Below are positions 17,941-59,132 of a stretch of 64,000 nucleotides of DNA, piece by piece. A program made the translations under genes and the position numbers. This stretch comes from a phage. Position 1 is the stretch's first letter. Every line of letters starts with the position of its first letter. The stretch lies in sequence record PZ445527.1; one strand, 5' to 3'. The notes beneath the pieces are model-generated. The model was not told where the DNA came from. It saw only the letters and a program-made list of their open reading frames with translations, and made no database searches.

Positions 17941-18017
17941 TGGCGCGACTGATGGGATTTGAACCCACATTCCCTCCCGTGATAGGGGAGTACCATTACC
18001 AAGCCAGCCACGGTCGC
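17941..18017 (-). tRNA. tRNA with unusual anticodon loop CTATCAC (anticodon ATC, isotype uncertain)
   Basis: Acceptor GCGACCG/CAGTCGC, anticodon stem CTCCC/GGGAG, T-arm GTGGG-TTCAAAT-CCCAT, CCA encoded. Confidence 0.6.
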
Positions 18018-33311: not shown

Positions 33312-36300
33312 TTATAAGGTGCAGCCACCTGAAGAACATCCTGTAGTTTCTCCAGCTCCTCCACCATTCGCAGTGTTAAAGTTAGCATAATACCAGGTTT
33401 TTATACCATACTTAACCGCAGTCATAAAGTCACGAACTACTACTGGGCCAGGGATGATTTCATTCTCGAATTTAGAGTAATCATAATACATCTGGAAACT
33501 TGATGACTGACTCAAGAATTTTTGGTAAACGGCGTTCCACTTGATCCACTCAATACGATCTACATCATAGGCCAGTTTATAGCTCATGAGAGTATCCCAA
33601 TCAGTTGCACCTGGGGCAATTGCAATTACTTTATTCACTGCACTACCCTTGATAGATACAATCTTACGAGGTGGTTCAATAGAGTTAGTAACGCCTAACA
33701 GAACAGAGGAACTTTCTCCCGGCATCTGCGCAGTCAGAACAGAGTTACGCATACCGTATTTCAGAATGTCTGCACGCAGAGATTCCCAATCCATTTCTAG
33801 ACCTACGGATACCAGCTCATCAACAGTTTTCTTATACGTGTCGATTACCAGAATTCCTTTGGATGGTTTAGTACGATTAAACCATTCACATGCACCTTGT
33901 TCTTTAGCCAGACGTACAGAGGCTTTATGTAGGAAGTAAGACAGTTTTTCAGCTTCACGATGAATCCAGTTACGTGCTTCAACGCCTTCATAAGCCAAAC
34001 CTTCCGCCGCCATTGCACCTGCTGCGTTCATCAGACCAATACCAACATTACGACGTTTCTTAGCCGTATATTCCATAGTTGGGAACGGATAATCCTGAAT
34101 TTCAATGATGGTATCAACGAATTTCAGGAGGATGTAGCAAGTTTTCTCCCACTCAGCCAGAGATTCCATGCGTCCTAGTACAACACCACCTAAGTTACAC
34201 AGAGATACTTCACCAATATCCTCTGGCTTCATTTGATCAAGCTGCTCTTTTGTCTTATACAGCTCTGTGATATGATGGAACGGGCGTGTAGGCTGAGTAA
34301 TTTCTACACAGTTACCCGCTAAAATGCCATTAAATACACCTAAGTTTAATTTAGGTTCTGTAAAGCAATAAGTATCACTAATACGACCAGTAAACTCAAC
34401 GTTAGTTACAGTTACAAAACGGGTTGCGTCTCTATTGGGGCGTGTTAGGTTTAAGAGTTTCTCTTTATCCAAAGAGAGTCCTAAATCTTTAAGTTTCCAG
34501 AAGCCACTACTCCCCACAATAAGCCTACTAGTCTCCTTGCAGTGGTATAGTTTACTAGTACCAGTACCATCTGGTAACTCGTGGTCACCTTCTTTGCGTC
34601 CTAAAATAATCTTGCTAGTAACCCCCAATTCTAGTAACAAATCCTTCACTTTACTTAGAAAATCAGGCTCTGCCGAAGCAACCACAATACTAGGAGTTGT
34701 GCCATTTTTCTGTATGCAGCCATCTGCATCTAAATATCCCTCTAACCATTTGATACGGCTATCAATAGTATACTCTGGGCCAGGTACAAAATACTTCGGC
34801 ATTAAATCAGACTTAACAATATAGCTCAGTCTACCTGTGCTGTCCAGTAATCCACTTCCCTGAATTTCTGCGTCAATTTTATCCACTAATGGTAGTTTGC
34901 CACCTTTTTCATAGAAGTACAGCTTAGGTTCTCCATGTCTTCCATAAGTTCCATCTCCAGTGAAGAAACCGTTAGTATAAGGAGATTTTAGTACCATATT
35001 TCCATGATCTACAATAGGATTACTAAATTTAGGCATTTTCATACCTACTTGCAAGTCTACTGCTCGTACCTCTTCTAGCCCCTGTTTGAAAGAGGTACGA
35101 CGATCCTCTCTGACATATTTGGGCTGGTGGTAGAACTTATGATAAAGAGTAGATTCAATAGTAGATCCATCAGAGAATGTGATTTTTATCAACTCCTGAG
35201 CTTCCCCAGTTTTAGTAGGGATAACTGTTGACCATTCTTGTCCGTTCCAAATCTCTACTTCTTTACCAACTAAATCAATAATCTCTATGTTACCATTTTT
35301 GGTTAAAATTTTTGTTTCTGGAGCTACACAAAGGTTTGTCATACGGATTGGATCAAGGAAGTTACCGTGACGATTAGATTCCCCGATGTGGTGCGCATAC
35401 ATACGTCCTGTTTCCATTCGGATACGTAGCCAAGTATCTAGGATTTCTTTTGCAGAGACTTTAGGAGCTGCTGGAACTGTTTTTCCTTCGTGGTCGATCT
35501 TTGTAAGAGATGCCACACGTTTCTCCGCTGCCACGTAGATTTCTTCAAATTTAGCCTCGTCATCACTATAAAACGCTTCATGAACTTCTGGAGCATAGAA
35601 GTATGACATTAGCGTAATATCTTCATTTTTCAGATAACGTTTTAACAAAAGATTGTTGAAGCTCAGAGAATAATCCATCTTATCAATTTTATTCTCGTCT
35701 GTAGCACGTTGTTGCTTAACCTGCATCAACTGAATGATTTCAGGGTCAAAGTATGGATAAGACACTGTAGCAGAACCACCACGAGTTTGCTGAGTATTGG
35801 CCTTTACTGAGCGATCAATGTGTCGATAATATGGCAGTTTTCCGGAATGCGGGAATGCCCCATTTCGCACCGGATCAGCAATTGATCTGCTTTCAAGATG
35901 ATACCCGATTCCCGCTCTGGCTGCAACCATTTTGAAGACGATGTGCTCGGCGGTGTCGATTGAATCCAACGTGTCAGTGGAATCCACGAGGCAGCAACTA
36001 GCAAATCCACGGTCACTAGAGCGCAGACCAACCAGTGGCGGCGTAGGAACGTTGATTTTGTGGAGCGACATTGCGTTGTAGAGGTCGATTGCATCTAGAA
36101 TTGTCCAGTTAGGTTGAGATAACATCGCCATTGCCATACCCATGTAGGCAAACTGCGGAGTTTCATAAATTTCACCAGTGGCTATGTTGCGGCGGGAATA
36201 CTTATCAAAGAACTGCTTCAGTCCACCACTAGTAAAAAGACGGTCACGATCATGGTCGATAACCTGATTCAGAGCTTCAAATTGCTCATCGGTAATCCAT

Positions 36301-36659
36301 GCACTCATGTCTTCCCATGCACCTACGCTAACCATGTGGTCATGGAAGAAGCGCAGAGAAGGTGGTTCGAAGGAATCATAAAGGCGTTTACGCATTTGCG
36401 CAAGACGTAATTCCTTTGCTGGCACATCGTATGCTGGGTTATCTTTGATAAGGCTTTCAGCAGCCTTAATTAATGCGTCCATCAGAGTGTCGGAATCTAC
36501 AACCCCTTTAGGCAGAGTTTTTTGAGCAGCCATAGTAATGGCTGACCAACTTACATCAACTGTTTTGCAACCATACTCTGCCCAACCATTGAGTTTTTCA
36601 GGAGCAAAGTCTTCTACAGTACCGTCACGTTTAATTACTTTTTCAATGCGATGGCTCAT
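33312..36659 (-). CDS. nrdA: ribonucleotide reductase large subunit with in-frame intein
   Basis: ORF 33312..36764; start placed at MSHRIEKVIKRDG Met by comparison with NrdA N-termini; class Ia R1 motifs throughout; about 340 extra residues inserted at the NLC active-site motif. Confidence 0.9.
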   Translation of the reverse strand: MSHRIEKVIKRDGTVEDFAPEKLNGWAEYGCKTVDVSWSAITMAAQKTLPKGVVDSDTLMDALIKAAESLIKDNPAYDVPAKELRLAQMRKRLYDSFEPPSLRFFHDHMVSVGAWEDMSAWITDEQFEALNQVIDHDRDRLFTSGGLKQFFDKYSRRNIATGEIYETPQFAYMGMAMAMLSQPNWTILDAIDLYNAMSLHKINVPTPPLVGLRSSDRGFASCCLVDSTDTLDSIDTAEHIVFKMVAARAGIGYHLESRSIADPVRNGAFPHSGKLPYYRHIDRSVKANTQQTRGGSATVSYPYFDPEIIQLMQVKQQRATDENKIDKMDYSLSFNNLLLKRYLKNEDITLMSYFYAPEVHEAFYSDDEAKFEEIYVAAEKRVASLTKIDHEGKTVPAAPKVSAKEILDTWLRIRMETGRMYAHHIGESNRHGNFLDPIRMTNLCVAPETKILTKNGNIEIIDLVGKEVEIWNGQEWSTVIPTKTGEAQELIKITFSDGSTIESTLYHKFYHQPKYVREDRRTSFKQGLEEVRAVDLQVGMKMPKFSNPIVDHGNMVLKSPYTNGFFTGDGTYGRHGEPKLYFYEKGGKLPLVDKIDAEIQGSGLLDSTGRLSYIVKSDLMPKYFVPGPEYTIDSRIKWLEGYLDADGCIQKNGTTPSIVVASAEPDFLSKVKDLLLELGVTSKIILGRKEGDHELPDGTGTSKLYHCKETSRLIVGSSGFWKLKDLGLSLDKEKLLNLTRPNRDATRFVTVTNVEFTGRISDTYCFTEPKLNLGVFNGILAGNCVEITQPTRPFHHITELYKTKEQLDQMKPEDIGEVSLCNLGGVVLGRMESLAEWEKTCYILLKFVDTIIEIQDYPFPTMEYTAKKRRNVGIGLMNAAGAMAAEGLAYEGVEARNWIHREAEKLSYFLHKASVRLAKEQGACEWFNRTKPSKGILVIDTYKKTVDELVSVGLEMDWESLRADILKYGMRNSVLTAQMPGESSSVLLGVTNSIEPPRKIVSIKGSAVNKVIAIAPGATDWDTLMSYKLAYDVDRIEWIKWNAVYQKFLSQSSSFQMYYDYSKFENEIIPGPVVVRDFMTAVKYGIKTWYYANFNTANGGGAGETTGCSSGGCTL
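34311..35330 (-). mobile_element. intein with LAGLIDADG homing endonuclease inside nrdA
   Basis: Insert begins with Cys (CVAPET), ends GILAGN followed by +1 Cys of extein NL-CVEITQP; contains GFFTGDGTYG and LEGYLDADGC motifs. Confidence 0.8.
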
Positions 36660-36803
36660 TTGGTTTTCCTTTTTATAGTTATCAGGATTTAAGGAATATT
36701 CTACATTATTATTGGTCATTAGGCAAATAAAATTTTCTGATAGAAAAGGCCCGAGTATTTTCATACCCAGGCCCTCTGTGTTGTCAGTCTAGTTTTTGGC
36801 CAC

Positions 36804-37001
36804 TTAAGTTCTCAGCAGAATATCTATCGAGGTACTTAGTTCACTATAATTGAAGGGCCGATTTGGATTTGAGGTTACAATTTTCCACGCTAGGGTAGTC
36901 TTAGGACTTTCTTCCCCTTCCTTACGTGTAATCATATTAGCAGCGCTCAGTGAAGTACGATGTATTTTAGTTTTTCGGTGTAGATGTACAACGTCTCCCA
37001 T
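36804..37001 (-). CDS. small hypothetical protein
   Basis: ATG 2 nt after phoH stop, preceded by GGGGAAGG RBS; low confidence. Confidence 0.3.
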   Translation of the reverse strand: MGDVVHLHRKTKIHRTSLSAANMITRKEGEESPKTTLAWKIVTSNPNRPFNYSELSTSIDILLRT

Positions 37002-37002
37002 A

Positions 37003-37755
37003 TTACACCTTCCCCATGTCTTTAAAAATATCGTAGAATGCTTTAGACTCAGCAGAACGAACGTTATCAATTAATTCGATCATTGAGAATGGAGCATTTT
37101 CATATTTCTCATAAACTTCCATAAGAAGTGCTAGACCTGAGTCACCTTTAATGTCTTTCTGAGCTATATCCCCGCAGATAATCAAACGGCAGTCTTGTCC
37201 TACACGAGTTAGGAGACAAACCATTGCCTCAACGGAAATATTCTGAGCTTCATCGACAATTACATAGGAGTTGTTGAAAGTTCTGCCACGAGCATGTTCT
37301 ATAGCCAAAAATTTAATTTTCTGACGTTCGACATATCCCTTATAGGCATGATCACCGATGGCCCATTTCATACCATCAGCTATTGGCTCCAACCAAGGCT
37401 CTAGCTTTTCGGCTAGATCACCAGGAAGCATACCAAGAGACTTACCTAGAGGTTCATTAGGACGTACGAGAATCACTTGCTCAATATCTGAGTGAATGTC
37501 TACGAGTTCCTGAGCTGCAAGAACGGACGGAATAAAGGTTTTACCAGTACCTGGCTCACCGATACCCACAGTCACTGTGTTGTTCTTGATCATATTGATA
37601 TATGATTTTTGCTCGCGGTTTTTACCTACTAGGGATTTAGCAACTGGGTTAGCGTAATCATTAGAAAAATCAGCCTGAATTACGTTATTCTCATATTTGT
37701 TGCCACGCTTTCTTGAACCATTGCGGTTCTCTCTTTTTTGACGTGCTTTTCCCAT
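37003..37755 (-). CDS. phoH: PhoH-like ATPase
   Basis: Walker A GEPGTGKT and VIVDEAQN Walker B; start at MGKARQ Met after AGGAGTG RBS. Confidence 0.85.
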   Translation of the reverse strand: MGKARQKRENRNGSRKRGNKYENNVIQADFSNDYANPVAKSLVGKNREQKSYINMIKNNTVTVGIGEPGTGKTFIPSVLAAQELVDIHSDIEQVILVRPNEPLGKSLGMLPGDLAEKLEPWLEPIADGMKWAIGDHAYKGYVERQKIKFLAIEHARGRTFNNSYVIVDEAQNISVEAMVCLLTRVGQDCRLIICGDIAQKDIKGDSGLALLMEVYEKYENAPFSMIELIDNVRSAESKAFYDIFKDMGKV

Positions 37756-40594: not shown

Positions 40595-40630
40595 AGCCAG
40601 GTTGCTAGTCGACCTGGCTTTTATTTTATT
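40595..40630 (+). terminator. rho-independent terminator after nrdD
   Basis: Hairpin AGCCAGGT...ACCTGGCT followed by TTTTATTTTATTT. Confidence 0.7.
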
Positions 40631-41347: not shown

Positions 41348-42187
41348 GTGAGGAACTGTACAGTGCGTAGATTAATTATTATTAGCGGTGCAGGTTTGAG
41401 CGTTGAAAGTGGTGTACGAGCCTTCCGTACTGATACTGCTAGTGGTAAAGCATTGTGGGATGATTATGACTTAGAAGAGGTATGTAATATTCATGCCTTT
41501 CGTGGTAATTTTTATCATAAAACCCATATGTTTTACAACAAGCGTCGTGAAGAGCTAAAAACTATTGAACCCAATCTTGCGCATCTTCGTATTGGTGAGT
41601 GGTATAAACAATACCCAGGTCAAGTAGTAAACTTGACTACTAACGTCGATGACCTTATTGAGCGTGCTGGCGTTCCGCATAGTGACATTCTACATATTCA
41701 TGGGTATTTAAAAGAGGTTGTTGTAGCTGACAGCTACAATAGCAGTAATAAACGAGTTATTGATGTTGGGTATAGCTCTATTGACCCAGATGATTATAAA
41801 TGGGTTAAACCTAATGTAATCTTCTTTGGTGAGCATGCTCCAGCGTACGCAGAAATGTACAATATTTTTGATGGTATTACCAGTCAAGATATGATCGTTG
41901 TAGTTGGTTGCTCTAACCAAGTAATTAACTTCTACTGGGAATTATTCCCTGTTCTTAATTTGACTGCTGCCAAATTAATGGTAGTTAACTACTATGATAG
42001 TGCCCTAGCGACAGAGCCAGGCTATCAAGGTATGACTCGTAGTGAGATGTACCAGCTGGAAGAACGCGGTATCCCTTACTGGAGTAAAGGGGCTGTAGAT
42101 GCCTTCAGTGACCCTGATTTTATTACTCGTGTAGAAGCTCATCTAGAGGGTAGACCTTATATGCCGGGGAAACAAATATGTCCATAA
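41348..42187 (+). CDS. Sir2-like NAD-dependent protein (deacetylase/ADP-ribosyltransferase family)
   Basis: 279 aa; Sir2-type Rossmann motif GAGLSVESGVRAFR, VIFFGE and VVVGCS segments; no obvious Cys4 zinc module. Confidence 0.65.
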   Translation: MRNCTVRRLIIISGAGLSVESGVRAFRTDTASGKALWDDYDLEEVCNIHAFRGNFYHKTHMFYNKRREELKTIEPNLAHLRIGEWYKQYPGQVVNLTTNVDDLIERAGVPHSDILHIHGYLKEVVVADSYNSSNKRVIDVGYSSIDPDDYKWVKPNVIFFGEHAPAYAEMYNIFDGITSQDMIVVVGCSNQVINFYWELFPVLNLTAAKLMVVNYYDSALATEPGYQGMTRSEMYQLEERGIPYWSKGAVDAFSDPDFITRVEAHLEGRPYMPGKQICP

Positions 42188-42360
42188 TTAAATCTGTGTA
42201 TACACACCCTGATGATATATTTGTATGGGCGGATGGTAGTTGGTGCTATCGCTGTGAGCTGTGGGAAATGGACTATAAATCCGATGACTATGGTGTCATA
42301 TATGTTGATACGGTTGAGTATGATACGTTCTTAGAAAGGGACAAAAGTGGAAATAAGTAA
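42178..42360 (+). CDS. small hypothetical protein
   Basis: 60 aa ORF. Confidence 0.4.
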   Translation: MSIIKSVYTHPDDIFVWADGSWCYRCELWEMDYKSDDYGVIYVDTVEYDTFLERDKSGNK

Positions 42361-42855
42361 TACTCCGATTATTTTTCTAGACATTGATGGGGTGCTCAAT
42401 TCGAGCATCTCCCACCATCATGCACCTGATGATGAAAAGATTTTCTTTGGAAGTGACTGGGTTTTCAAACCGCTTCTCAAGGCTTTTCAGGACTTTATTC
42501 GTCCTTCTCCGATAATGATTGTTGGAGTATCCTCATGGTTCTCTGTCAGGAATGAGGTGGAGAACGTTCACATTATGACCGGATTAGGTCTTATCGATCG
42601 TTTTCTAGGTACAACGGATTTTACAGGGGGGTGGATTATCTAGGGGTAATTCTGTTCTTCGTTTCGTTGAAAAGCATAAGCTCAAACATTGGTGTGTGCT
42701 GGATGATGCTGGTGCTATGATGTATCAGTATCCAACAGTTATAGTCAATGGTAGGACTGGGATAAATCTTCAAGATTTAAAAGCTGTTAGCTATATGCTA
42801 GAATTTAGCCCAGATCTTGAAATGTGTAAATCCTTACAACAATTTAAGGTGTAAA
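42347..42855 (+). pseudogene. HAD-like phosphatase/nucleotidase interrupted by a frameshift at a G6 tract
   Basis: N-terminal ORF 42347..42643 has HAD motif I FLDIDGVLN; continuation with WCVLDD motif is open in a different frame from 42609; frames meet at GGGGGG 42626..42631. Confidence 0.5.
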
Positions 42856-42856
42856 T

Positions 42857-43285
42857 ATGTTCAATAATGTATTCTCTAAAGAAGCTAACCCAATTTTGGT
42901 TAACTTTTGGCGTACTCTTCCAGCCAACCTATACAATGAGGCTATTAATGCTCTGAAAATATGGTGTGAGAATAATGAAATCTCCTTTGCTTTTAAAGGT
43001 GAGATTGAAGAGGCTCCGTGTATTGGTTTAATTGTGCAGGTGGAGGATGGTCTTGAAGAGATTGTCGGCTGGAAAGAGTTAGATGAAATGGGCTTGGTTT
43101 TTGCATTAAACTATAAGCTGTTTATGCCTAATAAACACCGTATTGTTGTTAATTATAAAACCAGTGAATCTCCTGGTTTTCAAGTTAATGAACGGTATGG
43201 TTGGTCTTACTCACCAGAAGAGGTAAATGATGGTATCCAAAAACTTCGCCGTTTTGGTTATCAAATTCCGGGTTTAACTGCCTAA
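42857..43285 (+). CDS. hypothetical protein (tandem paralog A)
   Basis: 142 aa; shares conserved block with the next ORF. Confidence 0.55.
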   Translation: MFNNVFSKEANPILVNFWRTLPANLYNEAINALKIWCENNEISFAFKGEIEEAPCIGLIVQVEDGLEEIVGWKELDEMGLVFALNYKLFMPNKHRIVVNYKTSESPGFQVNERYGWSYSPEEVNDGIQKLRRFGYQIPGLTA

Positions 43286-43294
43286 GGAGGCACA

Positions 43295-43681
43295 ATGGAA
43301 CAAGTATATTGGCGTCAGATTGATCCTAGTTTAGTGAAGCGTGCAGAGAAGCTGCTACAACGTTGGTTGGGGGTAAGACAAGCCTCCTTCACTTTTCCGG
43401 AGCAGCAAACGGATGATCCCTGTATTGGTGTTTTCCTATCAGGCTACGCTAGGGAATTGGATTGGAATGAGTTGTCTGCTATGGGTTTAATTGTTGCACT
43501 AAATTTCTTTTTGTTCCATCCACGTGGTTTGGCCATATGTCGTGTGCCTGATGACGGTTGTTCGCCCCATCTTTTACAGGTGAAAGATGATACTTGGGAG
43601 TACACTCCAGATATTCTCAAAGAAGCCAAAGAACAATTGAATCGTGTTGGAATCTATGTTCCAGGCCTGAATGATGAATGA
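43295..43681 (+). CDS. hypothetical protein (tandem paralog B)
   Basis: 128 aa; similar to preceding ORF; RBS AAGGAGG. Confidence 0.55.
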   Translation: MEQVYWRQIDPSLVKRAEKLLQRWLGVRQASFTFPEQQTDDPCIGVFLSGYARELDWNELSAMGLIVALNFFLFHPRGLAICRVPDDGCSPHLLQVKDDTWEYTPDILKEAKEQLNRVGIYVPGLNDE

Positions 43682-43704: not shown

Positions 43705-43730
43705 GCCGAGTCATTTTGGCTCGGTTTTCT
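43705..43730 (+). terminator. rho-independent terminator
   Basis: Hairpin GCCGAG...CTCGG followed by TTTTCT. Confidence 0.55.
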
Positions 43731-56564: not shown

Positions 56565-59132
56565 TTGAAAATCGCAGTAGTTGATAAAGCTCTAAACAAC
56601 ACTCGTTATGATAAACATTTCCAGCTATACGGCGAGGAAGTTGATGTATTCCATATGTGTAATGAGAAGTTGTCCGGTCGTTTGCTCAAAAAGCATATTA
56701 CTATCGGGACTCCAGAAAACCCATTTGACCCGAATGATTATGATTTTGTTATACTGGTAGGTGCCGAACCTTTTCTGTACTTTGCAGGTAAGAAAGGTAT
56801 TGGTGATTATACCGGTAAACGTGTAGAGTATAATGGATATGCTAACTGGATTGCTAGTATCAGCCCAGCCCAGTTACACTTTAAACCTGAAATGAAACCA
56901 GTTTTTGATGCAACAGTAGAGAATATCCACGATATTATCAATGGTCGTGAGAAGATTGCAAAAGCTGGTGATTACCGTCCTATTACTGGTCCTGACGAGG
57001 CAGAAGAATATATCAAGATGGTATATAATATGGTTATCGGACCTGTCGCATTCGACTCCGAAACCTCAGCACTATACTGTCGAGATGGTTATCTGCTTGG
57101 TGTTTCTATATCTCACCAAGAGTATCAGGGTGTATATATTGATTCTGATTGTCTCACAGAGGTTGCAGTATATTATCTCCAGAAAATTCTGGATAGTGAA
57201 AACCACACTATTGTTTTTCACAACTTGAAGTTTGATATGCACTTTTATAAGTACCACCTGGGACTTACTTTTGATAAAGCACATAAAGAACGCAGGCTCC
57301 ATGATACCATGTTGCAGCACTATGTTCTAGATGAACGTCGTGGTACTCATGGCTTGAAATCTCTAGCAATGAAGTATACCGATATGGGTGACTATGACTT
57401 CGAACTAGATAAGTTCAAAGATGATTACTGCAAAGCACATAAAATCAAGAAAGAAGATTTCACCTATGATTTAATTCCGTTTGATATTATGTGGCCTTAC
57501 GCTGCGAAAGATACAGATGCCACCATACGTTTGCACAACTTCTTCTTACCAAAGATTGAGAAGAATGAAAAACTTTGCAGTCTGTATTACGATGTTTTGA
57601 TGCCTGGTTGCGTATTCTTGCAGCGTGTTGAAGATCGTGGTGTACCTATTTCTATCGATCGTTTAAAAGAAGCTCAGTATCAGTTAACCCATAATCTGAA
57701 TAAAGCCCGTGAGAAACTGTACACTTATCCGGAAGTTAAACAGCTAGAACAAGATCAGAATGAAGCGTTTAACCCGAACTCTGTTAAGCAACTTCGTGTT
57801 CTTCTGTTCGATTATGTTGGTTTGACTCCAACTGGTAAGTTAACAGATACTGGGGCAGATTCTACGGATGCAGAAGCTCTGAATGAACTGGCTACGCAGC
57901 ATCCAATTGCTAAAACTCTACTAGAGATTCGTAAGCTGACTAAGCTGATCTCTACTTATGTTGAGAAGATTCTACTGAGTATTGATGCAGATGGTTGCAT
58001 TCGTACTGGTTTCCATGAACATATGACTACTTCTGGTCGTCTGAGTTCTTCTGGTAAACTGAACCTGCAACAGTTGCCCCGCGATGAATCTATTATCAAG
58101 GGTTGTGTAGTAGCTCCTCCAGGATATCGTGTAATCGCATGGGACTTAACAACTGCGGAAGTTTATTATGCTGCTGTTCTATCTGGGGATAGAAATATGC
58201 AACAGGTATTTATCAACATGAGAAATGAACCTGATAAATACCCAGACTTCCACTCTAACATCGCACACATGGTATTTAAGCTCCAATGCGAACCTCGTGA
58301 TGTTAAAAAGTTATTTCCAGCTCTGCGTCAAGCAGCTAAAGCAATCACCTTTGGTATTCTGTATGGTTCTGGCCCAGCTAAAGTAGCTCATTCTGTTAAC
58401 GAAGCTCTTCTGGAGCAGGCTGCTAAGACAGGCGAACCGTTTGTAGAGTGTACTGTTGCAGATGCTAAAGAGTACATTGAAACTTACTTCGGTCAGTTCC
58501 CGCAGCTTAAGCGTTGGATTGATAAGTGCCACGATCAGATAAAGAATCATGGATTTATCTACAGTCACTTTGGTCGTAAACGTCGTCTGCATAATATCCA
58601 CTCCGAAGACCGTGGTGTTCAGGGTGAAGAAATCCGTTCTGGATTTAACGCAATCATTCAGTCTGCTTCTTCTGATAGTCTCCTTTTAGGTGCTGTAGAT
58701 GCAGATAATGAGATCATTTCTCTTGGCCTAGAACAAGAGATGAAGATTGTTATGCTGGTTCATGACTCCGTAGTTGCTATTGTTCGTGAAGACTTGATCG
58801 ACCAATACAATGAAATCCTGATTCGTAATATTCAGAAAGACCGTGGTATCAGTATTCCTGGCTGTCCGATTGGTATTGATTCAGATTCTGAAGCTGGAGG
58901 TTCTCGTGACTACTCTTGTGGTAAGATGAAGAAACAGCACCCATCAATCGCTTGTATTGATGATGATGAATATACTCGTTATGTCAAGGGTGTATTACTT
59001 GATGCAGAGTTCGAGTATAAGAAACTAGCTGCAATGGATAAAGAGCATCCAGATCATAGCAAGTACAAGGATGATAAGTTTATTGCTGTATGTAAAGATT
59101 TGGATAACGTGAAAAGGATTCTCGGTGCTTAA
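56565..59132 (+). CDS. DNA polymerase, family A with 3-prime-5-prime exonuclease domain
   Basis: ORF 56529..59132; TTG at 56565 follows AGAGGAG and gives 855 aa; Pol A motif B KAITFGILYGSG and motif C LVHDS. Confidence 0.9.
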   Translation: MKIAVVDKALNNTRYDKHFQLYGEEVDVFHMCNEKLSGRLLKKHITIGTPENPFDPNDYDFVILVGAEPFLYFAGKKGIGDYTGKRVEYNGYANWIASISPAQLHFKPEMKPVFDATVENIHDIINGREKIAKAGDYRPITGPDEAEEYIKMVYNMVIGPVAFDSETSALYCRDGYLLGVSISHQEYQGVYIDSDCLTEVAVYYLQKILDSENHTIVFHNLKFDMHFYKYHLGLTFDKAHKERRLHDTMLQHYVLDERRGTHGLKSLAMKYTDMGDYDFELDKFKDDYCKAHKIKKEDFTYDLIPFDIMWPYAAKDTDATIRLHNFFLPKIEKNEKLCSLYYDVLMPGCVFLQRVEDRGVPISIDRLKEAQYQLTHNLNKAREKLYTYPEVKQLEQDQNEAFNPNSVKQLRVLLFDYVGLTPTGKLTDTGADSTDAEALNELATQHPIAKTLLEIRKLTKLISTYVEKILLSIDADGCIRTGFHEHMTTSGRLSSSGKLNLQQLPRDESIIKGCVVAPPGYRVIAWDLTTAEVYYAAVLSGDRNMQQVFINMRNEPDKYPDFHSNIAHMVFKLQCEPRDVKKLFPALRQAAKAITFGILYGSGPAKVAHSVNEALLEQAAKTGEPFVECTVADAKEYIETYFGQFPQLKRWIDKCHDQIKNHGFIYSHFGRKRRLHNIHSEDRGVQGEEIRSGFNAIIQSASSDSLLLGAVDADNEIISLGLEQEMKIVMLVHDSVVAIVREDLIDQYNEILIRNIQKDRGISIPGCPIGIDSDSEAGGSRDYSCGKMKKQHPSIACIDDDEYTRYVKGVLLDAEFEYKKLAAMDKEHPDHSKYKDDKFIAVCKDLDNVKRILGA

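Follow-up and report, generated by a model that had tools for sequence, protein, structure and literature searches.

Phage T5 carries, as gene T5.105, an intact coding sequence (CDS) of 507 nucleotides (nt) for a protein of 168 amino acids (aa), a single open reading frame (ORF) assigned to the Pfam family HAD_SAK_2 (PF18143). Its homologs in T5-like and more distant phages are mostly single ORFs of 160–184 aa. We examined the ortholog of T5.105 in a 64,000-nt stretch of phage DNA from sequence record PZ445527.1 (hereafter the window; all coordinates count from its first letter). The window comes from a T5-like phage (Tequintavirus): over about 25 kb around the HAD locus it is 93–95% identical to the genomes of T5 and other members of Tequintavirus, and its overall identity to any record stays within about 95%. 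Here the gene is one base too long and is split between two reading frames. At a probability of about 0.5, we read this as a real pseudogene, produced in the phage isolate by a very recent, non-programmed loss-of-function frameshift.

Anatomy of the split gene

The 5' piece, which we call ORF1 (42347–42643, + strand), is an N-terminal 98-aa fragment of a T5.105-type HAD_SAK_2 gene, with a GTG start and an AAGGGA Shine–Dalgarno-like element upstream. Its protein starts MEISNTPIIFLDIDGVLN and ends TDFTGGWII, where W-I-I is an out-of-frame tail that follows the shift and precedes a TAG stop at 42641–42643. Positions 42617–42643 read GAT TTT ACA GGG GGG TGG ATT ATC TAG, and the run of six Gs (G6) lies exactly at 42626–42631. 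The lesion site covers the Thr-Gly-Gly-Gly codons (ACA GGGGGG TGG, 42623–42635, + strand; ACAGGGGGGT in the record) and is one base longer than in all in-frame orthologs. The rest of the gene is found in the +1 frame, which is preceded by a TAG at 42606–42608, is open from 42609 and continues to a TAA at 42852–42854. Translated from 42609, this frame begins VQRILQGGGLSRGNSVLRFVEKHKLKHWCVLDDAG, includes GGGLSRGNSVLRFVEKHKLKHWCVLDDAG and ends QQFKV; the C-terminal remnant proper (GGGLSRGNS...QQFKV, 42627–42854, + strand) holds motifs III and IV of the HAD domain. A first-pass annotation, made from the letters of the window, had described an ORF with FLDIDGVLN that ends just past the G tract, and this description is accurate. 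The second frame that it reported, with HWCVLDDAG, is likewise open from 42609 but was drawn to 42855 rather than to the TAA.

Deleting one base joins the two halves into a single protein of 168 aa, as the first-pass annotation had anticipated (approximately 170 aa), and this repaired protein is identical at 168 of 168 positions to the intact ortholog of HASG4. Over the 521 nt compared, the window and HASG4 differ, besides the extra base, at two nt, both synonymous; the lesion is therefore either very recent or not real. Against PF18143 the repaired protein scores 71.7 bits (curated gathering cut-off 27.5; E 1e-19; positions 1–138/139), and ORF1 alone scores 42.6 bits (E 9.8e-11; profile positions 1–78). 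Given these family matches and the complete identity to HASG4, the ORF pair is not a chance pattern. The comparison with homologs that the same annotation had proposed turned up homologs containing both halves and none that also ends at this site.

Residue conservation was judged across 15–16 homologs with identity down to 36%. D12 and D14 (motif I), S63 (motif II), G95, G96, R99 (motif III), D119 and D120 (motif IV) are invariant among them, and S62 and G94 are nearly so. Motif I (FLDIDGVLN, with D12 at 42380–42382 and D14 at 42386–42388) and the motif II serines (S62/S63, 42530–42535) all fall within ORF1, which in this respect is a HAD-family sequence. The motif III arginine (R99, 42642–42644) and the motif IV acidic pair (D119 and D120, 42702–42707) occur in the window only in the +1 frame, beyond the ORF1 stop, and not on the polypeptide that carries motif I. 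Judged by these motifs, the window sequence as written encodes only part of a HAD domain and counts as a pseudogene of this family, not as a working member. The protein has the Rossmann-like HAD fold, and AlphaFold gives a confident model for an ortholog with 97% identity (predicted local distance difference test score 94.5); a sequence search of the PDB detected no solved structure. From fold and motifs, the product of T5.105-type genes is predicted to be a cap-less HAD-superfamily phosphatase-like protein, and the earlier call of a HAD-like phosphatase is right at that level, with the PF18143 match and the invariant HAD residues behind it.

Translated as written from the GTG at 42347 to the TAG at 42641–42643, the gene would yield a fragment of 98 aa in which the nucleophile motif (DIDG) and motif II (SS) are retained. 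This fragment should be catalytically dead, because motif III Arg99 and the Mg-binding Asp119/Asp120 would be lost. The C-terminal part offers no credible start codon, the sole candidate being a GTG at 42696, 3' of R99, and is probably not made. We considered and rejected a two-piece split enzyme, since the C-terminal part has no start or ribosome-binding site and its only internal GTG comes after the essential Arg99. The wild-type FTGGGL would be restored at most through rare +1 slips that occur spontaneously on GGG-GGG. Little polarity is expected on the downstream DUF7415 gene, because that gene has its own Shine–Dalgarno element and ATG.

The lesion site in related phages

The lesion site was read in about 30 in-frame relatives, all of which have a single frame. 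Their Thr-Gly-Gly-Gly codons are ACT GGT GGT GGG (T5), ACT GGG GGT GGA, ACT GGA GGT GG[A/T] or ACG GGG GGT GGA, a general pattern of ACN-GGN-GGT-GGN, and most relatives have no G run at all at this site (e.g. ACT GGT GGT in T5). The closest relatives here are HASG4, EASG3 and vB_Sen_I1 (99.0–99.4% identical), NBSal003 (98.1%) and GEC_vB_N3/N5 (about 97%). These already have AC followed by G6 in frame (ACG GGG GGT); the window, with ACA followed by G6, is one base longer. The first-pass annotation had placed the interruption at the G6 itself. A 1-nt frame change at the G tract is indeed present, but the length of the tract is not abnormal, as the closest in-frame relatives also read AC-GGGGGG-T, and a 28-genome multiple alignment places the private extra base of the window at A42625. 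Judging from the letters, the string could also have arisen from an ACA-GGG-GGT allele that gained one G; we searched for such an ancestor, and for an ACT+G6 allele, and found neither.

Over the length of the gene, the relatives listed in the hit tables fall short of the window by exactly 1 nt, with two exceptions: S.Ent 1-35-3 is 2 nt shorter (G6 to G5), and PMBT26 matches the window in length through a separate A gained in another run. The gene of vB_Sen_I1 is annotated as split; we rejected this as a lesion, as the sequence is in frame and the split arises from gene calling.

The allele of the window is absent from every collection that we searched. Its 34-mer had no match among 50,697 phage records (megablast), a search in which the HASG4 allele, used as a positive control, returned 10 records. 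Exact-pattern scans did not detect it in IMG/VR or in JGI metagenome contigs, it was not found in E. coli RefSeq genomes, and an exact look-up of the 98-aa product in a large gene index returned nothing.

Other orthologs carry lesions of their own. Our survey covered about 100 of roughly 440 T5-like records, and the count of lesions is a lower bound. It includes an amber codon in SP_Thor (W115, TGG to TAG), an opal codon in JLBYU43 (R68, CGA to TGA), a +1 change in PMBT26 (A5 to A6) and the −1 change in S.Ent 1-35-3 (G6 to G5). The two nonsense lesions are unlikely to be sequencing errors. These sequences suggest recurrent loss of the HAD gene in T5-like phages.

Origin of the extra base

We infer that the extra base is present in the phage DNA and not in the record alone, and that it probably arose when replication slipped or misinserted a base at this G hexamer, which has only one G/C counterpart in the 64 kb. 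No homopolymer in the window reaches 7 nt; there is one G6 (the lesion site) and one C6, and 38 runs of length 6 are present apart from the lesion G6. The gene hit would be one that the phage does not need for growth in the laboratory. A CRISPRi-ART knock-down screen of T5 scored T5.105 as 'Not Fit', i.e. dispensable in culture, and T5.107 as the sole 'Fit' gene of the operon (PMC11879866, supplementary file 16). Compared with T5, there is no other isolated out-of-frame indel in a conserved CDS across the 64-kb window, the sole other candidate lying in the tiny, doubtful ORF T5.097. In the 3.5 kb surrounding the gene, a private frameshift within a conserved CDS was seen in none of 27 other genomes. 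The T5.097 candidate is a G3-to-G2 difference from T5 at position 36873 (ORF 36804–37070, − strand; the local ORF is 88 aa with a TTG start); in T5 the ORF has 52 aa and bears an implausible annotation ('tail length tape measure protein'), and its status as a gene is doubtful.

Several points weigh against a real mutation. G homopolymers are a classic place for indel miscalls, and in at least one low-quality record (MG969412), which has hundreds of further errors, the length of this very tract is wrong. The lack of secondary decay and the singleton allele fit an artefact equally well. Set against the nearest relatives, what the window has gained is an A adjacent to the run and not a simple change in run length, so that a real origin by slippage needs either the ACA-GGG-GGT ancestor for which we searched in vain or two events. 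In addition, the CRISPRi-ART screen scored some replication genes as 'Not Fit', which makes its negative calls weak evidence (PMC11879866, supplementary file 16).

If the extra base is a base-calling or consensus error, the phage has an intact in-frame gene (ACG GGG GGT or ACA GGG GGT) and a functional T5.105 ortholog, and its DNA would read ACGGGGGGT or ACAGGGGGT, not ACAGGGGGGT. We give this just short of even odds. It would explain why the lesion sits at one of only two G/C 6-mers in 64 kb, why the repaired protein is 100% identical to that of HASG4 with no further decay, and why the allele is unique to the window in all collections searched. The same tract is also miscounted in the unverified, error-rich GE_vB_N5 record (MG969412), and the later GEC_vB_N5 record (MW006479) has G6 in frame; the two are about 97% identical over 10 kb, share a name stem and both come from Georgia. 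We rejected this pair as a natural re-sequencing control for the tract, because MG969412 is riddled with deletions and shows only that poor records miscount it. Aligned with MW006479, this record (MG969412.1, Salmonella phage GE_vB_N5, 148,669 nt) shows deletion gaps at a rate of about 295 per 10 kb, and no inference on frameshifts should be drawn from it. Against an error in PZ445527.1, no other isolated frameshift is seen in a conserved gene of the window, which points to an assembly that is not prone to homopolymer errors, and the 38 other runs of length 6 appear intact relative to T5. Moreover, flow-based run-length errors do not yield an extra base of this kind, which aligns to an A adjoining the run, and real lesions of the HAD gene occur in relatives.

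The first-pass annotation had also raised programmed slippage, in which the full-length HAD protein would be produced, as a regulatory feature, by ribosomes shifting +1 on GGG-GGG or by slippage during transcription of the G run. We consider this highly improbable. As read from the sequence, a tRNA-Gly slipping +1 on GGG GGG would re-pair perfectly and restore exactly the wild-type FTGGGL, and an AGGGGGG Shine–Dalgarno-like element is present, as in prfB. The restored peptide is a generic property of the sequence and not evidence of design, with trace read-through conceivable, and the Shine–Dalgarno-like run is the slip site itself, whereas it lies 3 nt upstream in prfB. No slow codon, rare codon or stop stands directly at the shift site, and neither a tRNA-Gly nor a tRNA whose anticodon loop is expanded is encoded in the window. 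Nor is the shift conserved: the in-frame relatives are all one ORF, most of them without a G run, and the +1 allele was seen neither in these relatives nor in the phage records, IMG/VR, the JGI metagenomes or the gene index. With a singleton allele and single-frame relatives, a conserved programmed frameshift is unsupported. Transcriptional slippage sites are homopolymers of about 8–9 nt or more, typically of A or T; the G6 is shorter than the tracts known to give efficient slippage, and runs of 7 or more are absent from the window. A phase-variable (contingency) locus, in which the G tract toggles the HAD gene at high frequency in phage populations, seems to us very doubtful as well. Poly-G tracts do switch genes in some bacteria and phages, and two records of the AC+G6 subgroup, the window (+1) and S.Ent 1-35-3 (−1), have opposite frame changes at the tract. 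However, the tract is only 6 nt (contingency tracts usually have 7–8 or more), it is a by-product of the Gly-Gly-Gly codons and is interrupted in most relatives (e.g. GGT GGT GGG), and its length changes in only those two records besides the error-rich MG969412. The other lesions of the HAD gene lie elsewhere and include nonsense changes, which is consistent with plain loss and less so with a switch. It is also possible, although unlikely, that selection lies behind such losses: the lesion, if real, would join the other independent knock-outs of the gene, and mutants without a functional HAD protein might escape on some hosts, for example if the protein or its product is sensed by host defence; the G run of the Gly-Gly-Gly codons would then act as a convenient mutational hotspot.

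We thus favour a recent loss-of-function frameshift. The locus represents an ordinary lesion that was not programmed, in an accessory gene already known, or else a single-base error of the record, and it carries little biological weight. For annotation, it should be entered as one frameshifted or disrupted T5.105-type HAD_SAK_2 gene, or be corrected against the reads, and not appear as two hypothetical proteins or as a recoding site. Repeated disruption in deposited T5-like genomes, together with dispensability in culture, marks a host-interaction or accessory gene and not a core function.

Genomic context and comparison with known systems

The HAD gene is part of an early operon of the T5.100–T5.107 type. 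Its upstream limit is a terminator-like hairpin past nrdD (40595–40619, + strand), and a second terminator-like hairpin closes it (43705–43725, + strand) at the place where T5 has an annotated hairpin. Between them lie a T5.100 ortholog, a Sir2-family gene, a T5.104 ortholog, the HAD gene and two DUF7415 paralogs. The Sir2-family protein is the ortholog of T5.102 (41348–42187, + strand; PF02146, E 2e-24). Its gene directly adjoins the T5.104 ortholog (42178–42360, + strand), which encodes 60 aa without a family match and shares 14 nt with the start of the HAD gene. T5.103 (186 nt; 57243–57428 in T5) is missing from the window (42166–42190) and from HASG4. On the 3' side, directly after the HAD gene, the orthologs of T5.106 (42857–43285, + strand) and T5.107 (43295–43681, + strand; the final gene of the operon) stand in tandem; each has two DUF7415 repeats. 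The ATG of the T5.106 ortholog lies 2 nt past the stop of the intact-frame HAD gene, and its Shine–Dalgarno element is AAGGTG. In the T5 annotation, several genes of this block are described as similar to ORFs of phages Aeh1 and 44RR.

Many RefSeq orthologs of the HAD gene (e.g. NC_005859, 57588–58094), as well as PHROG 18062, carry the label 'Sir2 (NAD-dependent deacetylase)'. This label is wrong: the protein is HAD-fold phosphatase-like, and the true Sir2-family gene is T5.102, two genes upstream. The DUF7415 neighbours are called 'exonuclease', 'tail protein' or 'tail tube protein' in other records, names that find no support here. A literature search on the function of PF18143, HAD_SAK or T5.105 found nothing, and the HIDEN-SEQ preprint does not cover T5-like phages.

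Other regions of the window also differ from T5. The ORF for NrdA, the large subunit of class Ia ribonucleotide reductase (33312–36764, − strand), is 1150 aa long, compared with 811 aa in T5. It contains an in-frame insertion of about 340 aa (approximately 34310–35326) with a LAGLIDADG_3 domain, inside the barrel domain and absent in T5, which by its sequence looks like an intein. Between 15619 and 21976 (− strand), ARAGORN finds 12 tRNA genes, compared with about 24 in T5, and no tRNA-Gly; the anticodon of the tRNA-Asp at 17941–18017 is called ATC, compared with GTC in T5.

Among described systems, the gene is closest to T5.105 (YP_006933) and its orthologs in Tequintavirus and Epseptimavirus, such as HASG4_00131 (QBQ81384), with which it shares its position in the early operon and 82–99% nucleotide identity. 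The shared gene order runs from the nrdD terminator through T5.100, T5.101, the Sir2 gene, T5.104, the HAD gene and the two DUF7415 genes to the closing terminator. Compared with these orthologs, the gene in the window is longer by one base and falls into two parts, an ORF of 98 aa and a remnant that lacks a start; T5.103 is missing upstream. HAD_SAK_2 is named for the HAD domain of 'Swiss Army Knife' RNA repair proteins, while the protein of the window is a stand-alone 168-aa domain. We rejected an RNA repair system of that kind, as the neighbours are a Sir2 protein (PF02146), two DUF7415 proteins and two small proteins without a family match, with no kinase or ligase among them. Because no kinase, ligase or nuclease domain is attached or adjacent, 'RNA repair' is a family name only, and the genomic context gives it no support. 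Within the wider superfamily of cap-less HAD phosphatases, MDP-1, the CTD phosphatases and the phosphatase domain of PNKP are the members for comparison.

With prfB-type +1 frameshifting and the G/GT frameshifts of phage tail chaperones, the locus has in common overlapping frames for one protein family and a G-rich Shine–Dalgarno-like run near a stop. Unlike those systems, its shift is not conserved, no canonical shift codon and slow stop are found at the right spacing, and orthologs with a single ORF are the rule. The closest parallel to the pseudogene that we favour is the decay of accessory genes in lytic phages, where strain-specific pseudogenes arise. As in such decay, a gene that laboratory growth does not require carries an inactivating singleton lesion, and orthologs have independent lesions; in this comparison the locus shows nothing distinctive.
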